From a virus (Duplodnaviria > Heunggongvirae > Uroviricota > Caudoviricetes): a DNA stretch of 9,399 bases. Positions 2,796 to 8,457 of the stretch are shown here, piece after piece; positions within the stretch are counted from its first letter, which is position 1, and each line of letters starts with the position of its first letter. Where the stretch lies: the IMG/VR virus record IMGVR_UViG_2667527789_000017. One strand, given 5' to 3'. The notes under the pieces were generated by a model, which saw only the letters and a list, made by a program, of their open reading frames with translations, searched no databases and was not told the origin of the DNA. Made by a program: the position numbers and the translations under genes.

Positions 2796-3677
2796 TTACA
2801 TAGATGTTTCGTTTAATTCTTCCCGACAAACGCTGTAAACGTCGGTGGCTTTTGCCAGCAGTTCGTCATCATCTGAAAGTTTTTGTGCAATGTATTTGTA
2901 AGCCTTATCCAGTTCGGAGACAGTGCTGTAATTCATCGCTGCGCTGGTAAAGGCCATCAGCATTTCTTCTGGATCACGGCTATCCGCTTTACGCGTTTGC
3001 TCATCATGCTTTTTCGCTGGTTTAGCGTTGATCAGACTGTTCATTCCCGCAGCAGTAGTCGTTTGCGGAGTAATGTCTCGCTCAACACGCGGTGCCGTTT
3101 CCTGTAATTCGTCAGGGGTGTAAACACCGAGAAGCACATCAGGAGCGTGCAGGCGAGCCCATCGTTTCGTGCAAAGATAGGCAAGCTGCTGGCGCGGATC
3201 CTGTTCCCACAATGGAGAGTTACGCACTCCGGCTTGCGCCATACTGATGGTAAGCTCACGGGGTTCTGCTTCTCCTTTAAGAACTGCTGACACAGTTACC
3301 GTCAGATTCGGTGATTTATCTGTTTTGCCGTTAACATTCGACCAGTCACCGCTCCAGCGATAATTCAGGCGTGTCGCTAGCAGGCTGGAAGAGGATACGA
3401 CCGCGTTTACCAACTGTGCTTCGTAGCCTAACGTTCCGTTTACCACATGCGTTTTCTGCGCCACGGCGAAAGGGTTCATTCCCCACTGTGCCGCCTGCAT
3501 GGTCACCGCCAGACAATCGGCAGGTTTGCCTTCAAGATGTTTCGGTACAGTCGCTTTGCTTTGTGACATCAACTCCGCGAAACGCACCAGTTGATTCATG
3601 CCCTCCGGGCTGAAGATTGCCGCAGCAGTACCTACAGTTGCGCCTGGTTGTGATGTGATTGCGATATCATTGCTCAT
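2796..3677 (-). CDS. bet: Bet/Redbeta-family single-strand annealing protein (RecT superfamily)
   Basis: 293-aa ORF; local similarity by eye to lambda Bet (window NPFAVAQK... / RQQLAYLCTKRWARLHAPDVLLGVYTPDELQE / RVERDITPQ versus lambda NPWTKEIYAF... / MLRHKAMIQCARLAFGFAGIYDKDEAER / ERQPERDITP). ATG at 3677 overlaps the exonuclease stop (ATGA). Confidence 0.85.
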   Translation of the reverse strand: MSNDIAITSQPGATVGTAAAIFSPEGMNQLVRFAELMSQSKATVPKHLEGKPADCLAVTMQAAQWGMNPFAVAQKTHVVNGTLGYEAQLVNAVVSSSSLLATRLNYRWSGDWSNVNGKTDKSPNLTVTVSAVLKGEAEPRELTISMAQAGVRNSPLWEQDPRQQLAYLCTKRWARLHAPDVLLGVYTPDELQETAPRVERDITPQTTTAAGMNSLINAKPAKKHDEQTRKADSRDPEEMLMAFTSAAMNYSTVSELDKAYKYIAQKLSDDDELLAKATDVYSVCREELNETSM

Positions 3678-4495
3678 ACGTACATATCCTGTTTACGTGC
3701 CCAGTCAGGGCGTTTAATAATTTCCACTCCGCCCCACTCATCGTTGATGCGGCATTCGTGATAGGTATTCAGATCCCGGCGGAACAGAGCGTGCCCGGCA
3801 TCGACATCCGGCGCATCCAGCTCGAACACGCGTACCGGATACCGACCACAATCAATGCTTTCGCTCACGGCAAGAAAGAAAAAACCATGCGGCTGACCAG
3901 TAACCCTCATTGCGCCTTCGCGGTACATTGCGTCCTGCACGTGGTAGCGGAATTCCTCGATGTGGCGTGCAAAACGGTCCATATCTGCAACCTTTTTCAC
4001 GTCGACGATCACGTTGTGCTCGTTCAGCCATTTGTCTGGACGAATGCGGCACAACTCACCAGTATCTTCATCGTTCCAGTACATTGATGCTTCGCAGTAA
4101 CCAGGTGCTTCCAGCATCCAGCGTGCCGCCGGGTGAGCCATTGCGCTATCACGCATCATCTCCAGTTTCCGCCACTGCTCGGCATCAAGTACCGTAATCC
4201 CCATATCCGCCACATCACGAAGAAATGCCTCTTCGTCAGCTTTACCTTGTTTCGTCCGACGATCGAATTTCGGTGAAACAATGAAGCGTTTGTCGAACTC
4301 TCCAGGCTCCAGAAGCAGACAGTGCAATGCGGTTCCCATATCCAGTGCAGACTTTTTCTCTTCGTCTTCTGGTGCTGCCTGAACCCATTTAAGAAGCGCC
4401 GGATTCTTGGCAACCATGTCCAGTTGCGACTTACTCACGCCGTCACCGGCGTGGTAGTCTTCGTTGCTGATGTCGAAATAAATTCCCGGTTTCAT
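3674..4495 (-). CDS. RecE-like PD-(D/E)XK exonuclease (exonuclease VIII C-terminal-domain type)
   Basis: 273-aa ORF beginning MKPGIYFDISNEDYHAGDGVSKSQL, the typical N-terminal signature of the short RecE-like / PDDEXK phage exonucleases; candidate catalytic residues in RIRPD ... IVDVKK (D ... D-x-K). Directly upstream of and translationally coupled to the annealing-protein gene. Confidence 0.8.
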   Translation of the reverse strand: MKPGIYFDISNEDYHAGDGVSKSQLDMVAKNPALLKWVQAAPEDEEKKSALDMGTALHCLLLEPGEFDKRFIVSPKFDRRTKQGKADEEAFLRDVADMGITVLDAEQWRKLEMMRDSAMAHPAARWMLEAPGYCEASMYWNDEDTGELCRIRPDKWLNEHNVIVDVKKVADMDRFARHIEEFRYHVQDAMYREGAMRVTGQPHGFFFLAVSESIDCGRYPVRVFELDAPDVDAGHALFRRDLNTYHECRINDEWGGVEIIKRPDWARKQDMYV

Positions 4496-5078: not shown

Positions 5079-5099
5079 TACTTGCTGAAAACTATAGTT

Positions 5100-5684
5100 T
5101 TATTGTTTGCTTTTTTCGTTCTGGTTGATGACAAATTCAATGTAACTTTCGATCTTTGCTTTCTCGGTTTCGGGTAACAATGCGTAGCGCGAGCGGTCAT
5201 AGTTGATAGTCGCGGGGTCGTGCGGGTGAATCAGTAATTCATATCCGTGACGCCCGAATGCGGATGCAACATTCTCCAGGGTGGAAATGGAAACGCTGAC
5301 CTCATTGTTTAACAGGCGGCTGATTGTCACCTGGGCGACGCCGGATGCGCGGTGAAGTTTTCCCTGCGTTGAAAGGTCGCGGCTTTCGCTCATCCAGCGT
5401 TCCAGGTTGTGAGCCGCCAGCTGACCAATGTCGCTTGGTCCGACAGGCTGAAAACCTTCCTGAGAAAGCGAGCGATCGATATCAAGCCAGTTACGGGGTT
5501 TATTGGCGGCAGCTTCAATTTTTCGCGCAACCTGGTCGCCGATAACCTTCTTGCCAAGAGCCCAGCGGTTTACCAGATTTGCCTGAGTTCCAAGTTTTTC
5601 TGCCATCCGCGTCTGAACACCATTGAATTCACGGTCGATCAAGTCGTTGAGATTTTGCCTGCGGACGTCCTGGATACTTTTCAT
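5100..5684 (-). CDS. Prophage repressor (CI-like role) with two tandem Cro/C1-type HTH domains and no S24 peptidase domain
   Basis: 194-aa ORF divergent from a Cro-like gene across an operator-rich intergenic region. Two HTH_XRE-like segments: GVQTRMAEKLGTQANLVNRWALGKK and ASGVAQVTISRLLNNEVSVSISTLENVASAFG. C-terminus shows no LexA/CI-type autopeptidase signature. No SD within normal distance of the ATG at 5684, compatible with a leaderless or short-leader mRNA as for lambda cI from pRM. Confidence 0.75.
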   Translation of the reverse strand: MKSIQDVRRQNLNDLIDREFNGVQTRMAEKLGTQANLVNRWALGKKVIGDQVARKIEAAANKPRNWLDIDRSLSQEGFQPVGPSDIGQLAAHNLERWMSESRDLSTQGKLHRASGVAQVTISRLLNNEVSVSISTLENVASAFGRHGYELLIHPHDPATINYDRSRYALLPETEKAKIESYIEFVINQNEKSKQ

Positions 5685-5838: not shown

Positions 5839-6069
5839 ATGAGCGATAACGGACATTTCGATTTCAAAAAGCACTGGCTTGCACTTACTCCGGATGAGCG
5901 TGAAGCCTTCGCACAGGAAGCCGGAACGACGAGTCACTATATCCAGACTCACTTAACAGGTAAGCGCAAAATGCCAGGTAAGGTATTGATGAATGGGCTT
6001 TTTAAAGCCTGTAAAACAAGACAATGGCTGAGCTCAAAAGCAGAACTGGCATACTTCTTCTACTCATGA
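5839..6069 (+). CDS. Cro-like small HTH DNA-binding protein
   Basis: 76-aa ORF divergent from the repressor. AFAQEAGTTSHYIQTHLTGKRKMPGKVLMNGLFKAC resembles the Cro/YdaS-type HTH layout (compare lambda Cro [29 protein letters not shown]). Followed by a strong terminator. Confidence 0.7.
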   Translation: MSDNGHFDFKKHWLALTPDEREAFAQEAGTTSHYIQTHLTGKRKMPGKVLMNGLFKACKTRQWLSSKAELAYFFYS

Positions 6070-6217: not shown

Positions 6218-6430
6218 TTGAAGATAGTAACCAGAATGGAGGCCGCAAAAGCCGGGTTAAATCGCTATTTCACAGGAAAGCGGTGCCGTCACGGCCATCT
6301 CTCTGAAAGGTATGTTCTGAACGGAACATGTGTTGAATGTGCAATGAATAGCGCCAACCGCCATCGTAATGAATTTGCTTGTGCACTAAAGAGTGCAAGA
6401 GGGGAAACCTATGGCAAGCAGCTGGATTAA
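6218..6430 (+). CDS. Small protein with putative zinc-binding motif (C-x-H-x-H ... C-x2-C), function unknown
   Basis: 70-aa ORF from TTG at 6218 preceded by AAAGGGG 8 nt upstream; an internal ATG at 6236 has no SD. Motif GKRCRHGHLSERYVLNGTCVEC. Occupies the position between cro and the replication genes where lambda has cII, but shows no similarity to CII. 3' end overlaps the next gene by 20 nt. Confidence 0.5.
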   Translation: MKIVTRMEAAKAGLNRYFTGKRCRHGHLSERYVLNGTCVECAMNSANRHRNEFACALKSARGETYGKQLD

Positions 6431-7247
6431 GGTTGAAGTTATCACTCCTGATAAACCTGAAATTTTTCAGATAGCAGAAATTCTGGGTATTGATCCAGAT
6501 GCTGTTCTTGGAAAGCTGGTTCGTATATGGGCATGGGCTGACCAGCAAACAATAGACGGTAACGCTGGCAGCGTTACAAAAGGAGTACTTGATAGACTCG
6601 CTTTTATTACAGGATTTGCTGACGCCCTCATTAGCGTCGGATGGCTTGCTTATCATGACGGTAAACTAATTCTTCCAAACTTTGAGCGACACAATGGAGA
6701 ATCATCGAAAAAACGTGCACTTACGAATAGAAGAGTGGCAGAGCATCGAAAACGAGTAACGCAAAAAGTAACGCCAACAGCGTTACAAAAGGAGTTACCA
6801 GAGGAAGAGGAAGAGGAAGAGGAAGATATATATAAAACCCCACACATAGCGCACGTGCGCGAGGGTGCTCCGACCAGTGAAGCGAACGGTATGCCGTTGC
6901 AGGTGGCTGAACCTGAATTTCTGGATGGCCTGAGTGAACCCATCGGGAAATTTCCGATGACCGATGGTTGGCATCCGTCGCCGGATTTTCGACGGCGTGC
7001 TGTGCTGTGGGGAACGGCCCTGCCGGAACCGGAATTTACACCTGCTGAACTTGCTGCATTCCGGGATTACTGGATGGCTGAGGGCAAAGTGTTCACGCAG
7101 GTTCAGTGGGAACAAAAATTCGCCAGGCACGTAAATCATATCAGGGGAAAATCAAAAAACGCCGGGAAAAGCGATGAGCTTGACTGGAATAACACTGACT
7201 GGATAGAAGGGGTGTGGGATGAAATCAACTCCAGAACTTCTCAATGA
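6411..7247 (+). CDS. Replication initiation protein: phage replisome-organiser-like N-terminal region fused to a DnaT-like C-terminal domain
   Basis: ATG at 6411 preceded by AAGAGGGG with 6-nt spacing; the ORF-track start at 6393 has no SD. C-terminal IGKFPMTDGWHPSPDFRRRAVLWGTALPEPEFTPAELAAFRDYWMAEGKVFTQVQWEQKFARH aligns by eye with E. coli DnaT [61 protein letters not shown]. N-terminal SWIKVEVITPDKPEIFQIAEILGIDPDAVLGKLVRIWAWADQ resembles phage replisome-organiser N-domains. Central poly-Glu linker. Confidence 0.85.
   Translation: MASSWIKVEVITPDKPEIFQIAEILGIDPDAVLGKLVRIWAWADQQTIDGNAGSVTKGVLDRLAFITGFADALISVGWLAYHDGKLILPNFERHNGESSKKRALTNRRVAEHRKRVTQKVTPTALQKELPEEEEEEEEDIYKTPHIAHVREGAPTSEANGMPLQVAEPEFLDGLSEPIGKFPMTDGWHPSPDFRRRAVLWGTALPEPEFTPAELAAFRDYWMAEGKVFTQVQWEQKFARHVNHIRGKSKNAGKSDELDWNNTDWIEGVWDEINSRTSQ
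6559..6577. repeat. Inverted repeat GTAACGC-TGGCA-GCGTTAC followed by AAAAGGAGT (copy 1 of intragenic repeat)
   Basis: Directly read; 7-bp arms with 5-bp spacer, inside the replication-initiator gene. Confidence 0.7.
6756..6786. repeat. GTAACGC half-site (6756-6762) plus inverted repeat GTAACGC-CAACA-GCGTTAC (6768-6786) followed by AAAAGGAGT (copy 2)
   Basis: Shares GTAACGC ... CAGCGTTACAAAAGGAGT with copy 1 but sits in a different codon phase of the same gene (copy 1 starts at codon position 2, copy 2 at position 1), so the repeat is conserved at the DNA level rather than the protein level. Confidence 0.7.
6801..6824 (+). repeat. Hexanucleotide tandem repeat (GAGGAA)x4 encoding a poly-Glu linker
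   Basis: gaggaagaggaagaggaagaggaa read directly; translates as EEEEEEEE in the initiator gene and is followed by AT-rich GATATATATATAAAA. Confidence 0.9.
6849..6860. repeat. Perfect 12-bp palindrome GCGCACGTGCGC
   Basis: Read directly; lies just downstream of the AT-rich stretch inside the initiator gene. Confidence 0.7.
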
Positions 7248-7995
7248 GTACGATCGCTTACGTGAGCATGGTGTTGATGTGCATGAAGAGCGGCGTGGCA
7301 GCAATGGCAAAAAGGAGCAGGTTGCTAGAATTTTCAATGAACTATTTGTCCAGTTACAGGCTGCATTTCCTGCAAGCGTTTCGACCATAAGGGAGCAGAA
7401 CAAACTTAATGAATTCCGTAAGCAATGGATGCTTGCGTTTCTGGAGAATGGGATCACTACAATGGAACAGGTTAACGCTGGTATGCGCCACGCTCGCGCC
7501 AGTGAGTCTCCGTTCTGGCCGTCGCCAGGGCAATTCATCAAGTGGTGTAAAGACAGCAAGATGGTTCTTGGCGTCACCATTGACGATGTGATGGCGGAGT
7601 TTCACCGGTACAGCAAGGAAAAAAGTTTATATCCTGGTGGTCCCGAAAGATTCCCGTGGTGGCATCCGGTTATGTACTGGGTCGTATGTGATACCCGCCG
7701 TGCAATGTATCAGCGCCAGCTTAGCGAGATTGAGGTTGAGAAACACGCGCGCAGGCTGCTCGATGATTGGGCGAAAAAGGTGGCTTCCGGACAGCAGATA
7801 CCCGATCCGGTGATCAGCATACAGGCAAAGCCAGAACCCATGAGTACGCCTCCGGACACAGGGAGAGACGTTTACCATCCACCAGGGCGAAGTTTCGGGT
7901 GTATGCCTAACGCCGCCACCCTGGGGGGAATAACACCGGCGCAGTGGCTGATGGAGGAATGCAGGCGGGGAAAGGCGTCAGGATTTATCAAGTAA
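7219..7995 (+). CDS. P: Replication protein P homologue (lambda P-like helicase-loader)
   Basis: 258-aa ORF; VARIFNELFVQLQAAFPASVSTIREQNKLNEFRKQWMLAFLENGITTMEQVNAGMRHARASESPFWPSPGQFIKWC is near-colinear with lambda P VAQIINGVFSQLLATFPASLANRDQNEVNEIRRQWVLAFRENGITTMEQVNAGMRVARRQNRPFLPSPGQFVAWC. ATG at 7219 preceded by GAAGGGG; overlaps the 3' end of the initiator gene by 29 nt. Confidence 0.9.
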   Translation: MKSTPELLNEYDRLREHGVDVHEERRGSNGKKEQVARIFNELFVQLQAAFPASVSTIREQNKLNEFRKQWMLAFLENGITTMEQVNAGMRHARASESPFWPSPGQFIKWCKDSKMVLGVTIDDVMAEFHRYSKEKSLYPGGPERFPWWHPVMYWVVCDTRRAMYQRQLSEIEVEKHARRLLDDWAKKVASGQQIPDPVISIQAKPEPMSTPPDTGRDVYHPPGRSFGCMPNAATLGGITPAQWLMEECRRGKASGFIK

Positions 7996-8112: not shown

Positions 8113-8457
8113 ATGAGAAAACAGATACAGGCTCTTGGTCGACTCAAAACAGGCCAGATGAACAAAACAGAATCTGCGTATTGCCAGCACCTTGAGCTGC
8201 GTAAACGTGCAGGAGAAATCGTCTGGTATCGATTTGAGGGTATCAAGCTGCGGTTAGCTGACAACACGTTCTATACGCCCGATTTTGCTGTGATGCTCGC
8301 CACCGGCGAGATGGAACTGCACGAAGTGAAAGGTTTCTGGACCGACGACGCCAGGGTGAAAACCAAAGTCGCCGCAGATCAGTATCCGTTCCGAATCATC
8401 GGGGTAACGGTTAAACCAAAGAAAGCAGGTGGTGGCTGGAACATCGAAGAGTTCTGA
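8113..8457 (+). CDS. DUF1064-like phage protein with PD-(D/E)XK nuclease-type motif (putative structure-specific nuclease)
   Basis: 114-aa ORF; FYTPDFAVM ... ELHEVKG gives a D ... E-x-K arrangement typical of PD-(D/E)XK nucleases. Overall pattern recalls the DUF1064 family of small phage proteins, assigned from memory only. Confidence 0.6.
   Translation: MRKQIQALGRLKTGQMNKTESAYCQHLELRKRAGEIVWYRFEGIKLRLADNTFYTPDFAVMLATGEMELHEVKGFWTDDARVKTKVAADQYPFRIIGVTVKPKKAGGGWNIEEF

Follow-up and report, generated by a model that had tools for sequence, protein, structure and literature searches.

Organization of the locus

The window, by which we mean the whole stretch of 9,399 nucleotides that was analysed (IMG/VR record IMGVR_UViG_2667527789_000017, Caudoviricetes), is the early region of a lambdoid prophage, and it adjoins guaA in the E. 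coli genomes that carry it. An integrase gene lies at 1-1251 and an MT-A70 methyltransferase gene at 1446-2096 on the minus strand, the latter adjoining an ORF for a PerC-family regulator (2089-2388, also on the minus strand; 5089-5339 in locus L001) that is recorded with a frameshift in the closest RefSeq genome. A leftward recombination block, encoding RecT (2796-3677) and a PD-(D/E)XK exonuclease (3674-4495), is followed by a CI-like repressor gene on the minus strand (5100-5684) and a Cro-like gene (5839-6069). The replication initiator, a protein of 278 aa, is encoded on the plus strand at 6411-7247, with an ATG at 6411 in the list of open reading frames and an alternative GTG start at 6393. 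Its end is overlapped by the gene for a lambda P-like helicase loader (plus strand, 7219-7995; PHROG 109), and a DUF1064 gene (8113-8457) lies further downstream. Immediately before the initiator, and overlapping its start by 20 nt, is a small Cys/His-rich ORF of 70 aa (CRHGH...CVEC; plus strand, 6218-6430; PHROG 1081, of unknown function). An ORF of the same size (67-69 aa) stands directly 5' of the initiator, or one gene earlier, at Salmonella, Klebsiella, metagenomic and epsilon15 loci.

The initiator matches PHROG 2509, 'replication initiation protein', from end to end (E 1.8e-130; aa 1-270 against positions 1-277 of the 277-position profile). The function proposed for the gene by the sequence-only reading is borne out, and 6411-7247 is the replication initiator of a lambda-like E. 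coli prophage. In RefSeq the protein is named 'DnaT-like ssDNA-binding domain-containing protein' and stands beside 'replication protein P'. The PHROG 2509 protein of epsilon15 (NP_848250) has the same N-domain and the same DnaT-like domain, and its RefSeq record already cites an HHpred match to DnaT (2ru8); unlike the window protein, it terminates at the end of the DnaT-like domain, and no loader gene adjoins it. In the chromosomal DopC/DopE system, likewise, an O-like N-terminal DNA-binding domain is combined with a DnaT C-terminal motif, and a lambda-P-like gene comes directly next (Brezellec et al., 2017; PMC5509034). DopCE are vertically inherited and were reported to be without iterons (PMC5509034), whereas the window copy lies in a prophage and has conserved iterons. 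The fusion architecture is therefore not new, being annotated in RefSeq and in PHROGs and published in a domesticated form, and our literature search for 'DnaT-like' found no paper on the initiator family.

The initiator ORF is single and unbroken. Full-length copies are carried by 113 complete E. coli genomes and by many further Enterobacterales, so that a frameshift dividing it into two halves can be dismissed and the single fused reading frame first described for the locus stands. Many prophages are cryptic, and the gene might in principle have decayed or been domesticated and so have lost the ability to initiate replication, much like the chromosomal DopC, a protein of identical domain layout that is believed not to define an origin (PMC5509034). 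A truncated variant of the initiator does exist in E. coli: P0005, of 257 aa, is frameshifted and ends early inside the DnaT-like domain, which indicates that some prophage copies are decaying. For the window copy we consider decay or domestication very improbable, as the ORF is intact and 96-99% conserved across many genomes, the iterons, the polypurine tract, the P gene, the regulator genes and the recombination genes are all intact, and near-identical genes are present in records deposited as phages.

A predicted winged-helix domain at the N-terminus

The N-terminal domain (plus strand, 6411-6770; aa 1 to approximately 120) is presumed to be the origin-binding part of the protein. Neither in the initiator nor in 68 diverse relatives does it match any Pfam family, Phage_rep_org_N and Phage_rep_O included, and it has no NCBIfam match either. 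For PF09681, the phage replisome organiser N-domain that the sequence-only reading had expected here, no match was found to the initiator at E<=0.1, to six close relatives at E<=1 or to the 68 diverse relatives at E<=0.01. In a structure model built from 74 sequences (pLDDT 82), a bundle of helices is accompanied by a beta-hairpin, an arrangement of the winged-helix type, and among predicted viral structures the domain matches proteins named 'replisome organizer' (E about 1e-4). On this model the N-domain is predicted to resemble phage replisome-organiser N-domains at the level of the fold only; that much of the original assignment may survive, and the family membership does not.

The domain also sets the protein apart from lambda O. 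The lambda O-type HMMs (PF04492 for the N-domain, PF09524 for the C-domain) found no match in the initiator, so its N-domain is not Phage_rep_O and its C-domain is not Phg_2220_C, and the two proteins share no PHROG.

Among the relatives, the Verrucomicrobiota proteins (L057, L060-L066, L068) end in ..DDEQPMLF or DEDQPLLF, which by eye is like a beta-clamp-binding motif of the QL-x-LF type. In a Pfam scan of L057, the next gene encodes a glycosyltransferase, neither a helicase nor a loader.

Iterons within the initiator gene

The heptamer GTAACGC, or its complement GCGTTAC, occurs six times in the 9.4-kb window, and five of the six copies (at 6559, 6571, 6756, 6768 and 6780) fall within 228 bp of the initiator gene (6559-6786). 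They form two clusters, GTAACGC-N5-GCGTTAC at 6559-6577 and GTAACGC-N5-GTAACGC-N5-GCGTTAC at 6756-6786, with a spacing of 12 nt. In none of 2000 shuffles were five or more heptamers found within 260 bp. When 75 loci found through the N-domain were compared, heptamers recurred at the same two gene offsets (approximately 149-197 and 335-427) with a spacing of 11-12 nt, and loci with heptamers at these offsets span Enterobacterales, Pseudomonas, Burkholderiales, Planctomycetota and Acidobacteriota.

Conservation of these sites is evident in the DNA itself. In a 56-sequence alignment of the N-domain, synonymous sites are fixed in the codons that the heptamers occupy (GGT in 43 of 52, AAC in 42 of 42, AGC in 29 of 29 and GTT in 42 of 52), and a motif-based tally agrees. 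Elsewhere in this domain, codon choice at conserved Gly, Asn, Val and Ser positions is mixed, GGT ranging from 4 of 55 to 21 of 54 and AGC standing at 5 of 19. The fixed synonymous sites at the heptamers point to selection on the DNA, as is expected of binding sites for an initiator. In silico, the phage origin appears to lie inside the initiator gene, as one part of a lambda-type module that we regard as probable overall.

The arrangement recalls ori-lambda, which likewise consists of iterons followed by a purine-rich A/T stretch and lies in the part of the initiator gene that codes for the inter-domain linker. The repeats themselves are unlike those of lambda, as the window has 7-bp GTAACGC units in two clusters, whereas lambda has four repeats of 18-19 bp in one. 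Three relatives, from Pectobacterium, Serratia and Dickeya (L010, L011 and L287), have extra iterons, which are read in the protein as repeated 'NA..NA..SVT', and also a long C-terminal extension (..SGESRAMQKF..GGDDRD..ERGG..).

A polypurine tract encodes the poly-Glu run

A polypurine tract (6800-6826) and an A/T-only run, ATATATATAAAA (6826-6837), together make up a presumed DNA-unwinding and helicase-loading region on the plus strand (6800-6837). The tract begins 13 nt after the last heptamer in the window, a similarly short distance is seen in most relatives, and the purine skew peaks here. It contains (GAGGAA)4 at 6801-6824, coding for eight Glu residues, and TRF reports 4.5 perfect copies of the hexamer over 6800-6826. 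A polypurine run of at least 15 nt after the iterons, followed by A/T-rich sequence, was found in 40 of 68 relatives. The tract reads AGAGGAAGAGG... in enterics and AGAGAAGAGAAG... elsewhere; its position is kept and its reading frame differs by lineage, giving EEEE in some and EKRREE outside enterics.

Because other lineages read the tract as EKRREE, the conserved feature is the polypurine DNA rather than the acidic residues. The (GAGGAA)x4 repeat described from the sequence alone is indeed present and does separate the two halves of the protein, and the poly-Glu run appears to be what a conserved DNA element, most simply the unwinding region, encodes at this locus. The 'linker' is seemingly dictated by that element and not by a need for acidic residues.

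The number of GAGGAA copies at 6801-6824 varies in frame among close relatives, which have 4, 6, 8 or 9 Glu. The segment 6786-6834, which takes in the end of the iterons and the polypurine tract, also matches on its own, at 94-95% identity, 'hypothetical protein' genes of other E. coli genomes (H68-H70) that are otherwise different, and there are chimeric proteins, such as P0071, in which the sequence switches directly after ...LQKEL. From these matches and chimeras, the origin region looks like a recombination junction between initiator modules.

A DnaT-like single-stranded DNA-binding domain

The three-helix DnaT-like ssDNA-binding domain is encoded on the plus strand at 6939-7160 (aa 177-250). 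PF17948, the DnaT DNA-binding domain, matches aa 181-251 (E 1.7e-18), solved DnaT chains, which are C-terminal domains, match with E values from 2.7e-20 to 1.7e-16, and Salmonella DnaT aligns by BLASTP with 57% identity over 76 aa (E 9e-24); against the E. coli and Salmonella proteins the identity is 51-57%. Thus the resemblance to DnaT that was first noticed by eye is significant, but it had been placed too far downstream, in the last 70 residues, and the final 28 aa form a separate tail beyond the domain. Mutations in DnaT that impair ssDNA binding affect Y127, W128, K133, F135, K143 and R146 (PMC4132743). In the alignment all six residues are identical in the initiator (Y220, W221, K226, F228, K236 and R239).

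Beyond this domain the two proteins differ. NCBIfam NF002770, the DnaT equivalog, scores 90.8 bits against a cut-off of 201 bits and is matched over profile positions 82-161 of 179 only, and nothing in the initiator aligns to DnaT residues 1-80, the N-domain responsible for oligomerization and PriB binding. In its place the initiator has a presumed sequence-specific winged-helix domain. The C-terminal tail of DnaT, ..(D)VN.VSEPD..IPPGFRG, is absent at the window locus, and so is dnaC as the next gene: the initiator is followed by P, whereas dnaT is followed by dnaC.

The domain is shared by initiators with different partners. It occurs with P in the window protein, P0006 and P0064, with DnaC in L203, L210 and L272, and without any loader gene in P0012 and epsilon15. 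Because it occurs irrespective of whether P, DnaC or no loader gene comes after the initiator, the DnaT-like domain is a loader-neutral module common in phages and not a marker of the PriA route.

The sequence-only reading had suggested a hybrid or redundant route, in which the DnaT-like domain and the acidic linker would engage PriA and PriB and assemble a PriA-type primosome besides, or instead of, loading through P. The C-terminal domain of DnaT, to which this domain is 51-57% identical, is the PriA-docking part, and the acidic linker of DnaT docks on PriB (PMC13377028); the initiator carries Glu8-Asp before the domain, and relatives without a loader gene exist. Nevertheless, the initiator lacks both the N-domain and the tail of DnaT and falls far under the equivalog cut-off, the acidic run is not conserved as protein, being EKRREE in other lineages, and a cognate P gene overlaps the initiator stop codon. 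Only the ssDNA-binding bundle of DnaT is present, that bundle is loader-neutral, and the loader follows the tail, as described below. We therefore consider the hybrid route unlikely and no longer uphold this part of the original interpretation. The idea that the poly-Glu run mimics the acidic PriB-binding linker of DnaT was also set aside, since it is the purine tract that is conserved and the protein reads EKRREE outside enterics.

The C-terminal tail and the choice of helicase loader

Beyond the DnaT-like domain lies a C-terminal tail (plus strand, 7161-7244; aa 251-278) with the motif LDWNNTDWIEGV at 7179-7214, presumably a P-docking peptide. The window protein ends ELDWNNTDWIEGVWD..., with the tail ..LDWNNTDWIEGVWDEINSRTSQ, and lambda O ends KLDLTNTDWIYGVDL. 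By BLASTP, similarity to lambda O is restricted to the C-terminal region (aa 215-268 against O 245-297) and is anchored by LD-x-NTDWI-x-GV, a motif common to the extreme C-termini of both proteins. Tails of this kind were seen only ahead of P genes. An alignment with lambda O, which the sequence-only reading had proposed, thus finds the C-terminal ends alike and no other similarity. As in lambda, the P gene comes next and overlaps the initiator stop, in this case by 29 nt. Its product, recognized as a lambda P homologue from the outset, is confirmed as such by PF06992 (186 bits against a cut-off of 26 bits; E 5.7e-55) and by 43% identity to lambda P over 168 aa.

Proteins that share the N-domain and the ...LQKELPEEEE junction bear different C-terminal parts, and the downstream partners of N-domain relatives include P-like loaders, DnaC homologues, DnaB helicases and Toprim-DnaB_C primase-helicases, or there is no loader. 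A nearest-downstream-ORF rule overlooked P-like genes whose overlap with the initiator exceeds approximately 90 nt (L010, L011). As P0064 shows, initiators of the long-extension type, too, have a short P-like gene next to them. In Dickeya (L287), a short P-like gene of 181 aa overlaps the long extension by approximately 90 nt.

The type of loader follows the last ~20 residues of the initiator, a lambda-O-like tail going with P and a DnaT tail (..PDxxIPPGFRG) with DnaC. In all 79 viral contigs retrieved through P, the gene upstream of P ends in ..NTDWIYGVDL or ..HWNSPEGWKDFI. Cellular DnaT ends in ..SEPD..IPPGFRG, with dnaC next. A DNA pattern for the DnaT-type tail picked out 119 viral loci. 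P follows within 3.5 kb at none of them and a DnaC homologue at 60, as a rule 2-6 nt past the initiator stop; 47 have neither, and at the remaining 12 the flanking sequence is too short for a decision. When initiators were clustered at 50% identity, those with the DnaT tail were paired with DnaC in 10 clusters, with no loader in nine and with P in none, and those with Trp-containing tails were paired with P in six and with DnaC in none; the sets were chosen by P or by the tail itself, and the lineages are not fully independent. Three unrelated middle domains (Phg_2220_C, a 'PDWLPETLW...QGLF' domain and the DnaT-like domain) have each been found with both kinds of tail, and in every case the tail matches the loader. 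The Burkholderiales relatives L049 and L067 are paired with P and have a tail without the Trp motif. The initiator of epsilon15 has the DnaT-like domain and neither a tail nor a loader gene, and so a tail is not obligatory.

The DnaT tail recurs in many unrelated phage initiators (for example L008, 1249-2528; L044 and L045; L165-L284), which precede DnaC homologues or have no loader gene after them, and never before P.

Lambda O makes contact with P through its C-terminal half. By extension, the DnaT-like domain of the window protein could be chiefly a P-binding domain, its ssDNA binding incidental and the tail an accessory. It is located where O has its Phg_2220_C domain, and the weak BLASTP match to O reaches back into its last helix (aa 215-250). 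We judge this improbable, however, because the same domain stands before DnaC homologues and in phages without a loader gene, because the three unrelated middle domains pair with P or DnaC according to the tail, and because six of six ssDNA-binding residues are kept.

Discussion

The explanation that we favour is that the locus is a lambda-type two-gene replication module, consisting of an initiator and a P-like loader with the origin inside the initiator gene, in an E. coli prophage beside guaA; we think this likely, and the best-supported interpretation is a lambda-type initiator of modular build, not a mixture of two routes. From the domain identities, the iterons and their conservation at the DNA level, the polypurine tract, the retention of ssDNA-binding residues and the co-occurrence of tail and loader, we infer an order of events. 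The N-terminal winged-helix domain would bind the GTAACGC iterons, in two clusters ~200 bp apart in its own coding sequence, and the polypurine and A/T-rich stretch that codes for the poly-Glu linker would melt. DnaT-like domains concentrated at the origin may coat the exposed strand, with approximately two nucleotides per domain interface if they behave like DnaT, whose C-terminal domain forms filaments on ssDNA (PMC13377028), and this coating would mark the loading site. The lambda-O-like tail would dock the P-DnaB complex, and P would then load the host DnaB helicase. A direct contact of the DnaT-like domain with P, or with PriA of the host, is also conceivable.

Three points extend what was first read from this locus, namely that the origin may lie inside the gene, that the poly-Glu run appears to be a DNA element, and that the choice of loader tracks the tail, and the analysis suggests that the last is the most novel lead. 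This work also gives a precise in silico origin map for a very widespread initiator family, from Enterobacterales to Planctomycetota.

A broader proposal, which we put forward tentatively as a possibility somewhat short of an even chance, is that short C-terminal tails are interchangeable loader-selecting peptides, with the DnaT tail (..VSEPD..IPPGFRG) recruiting DnaC-DnaB. Reviews report no documented contact between DnaT and DnaC and leave the recruitment step unexplained (PMC5778457; PMC13377028); our own literature search for a contact between the DnaT tail and DnaC found none. If the proposal is true, the dnaT-dnaC operon would be a domesticated phage initiator-loader module, with PriA and PriB directing cellular DnaT to forks, a task for which the phage initiators have a sequence-specific domain that binds the origin. 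The link between tail and loader offers a comparative clue to how an initiator, or DnaT, hands over to the helicase loader.
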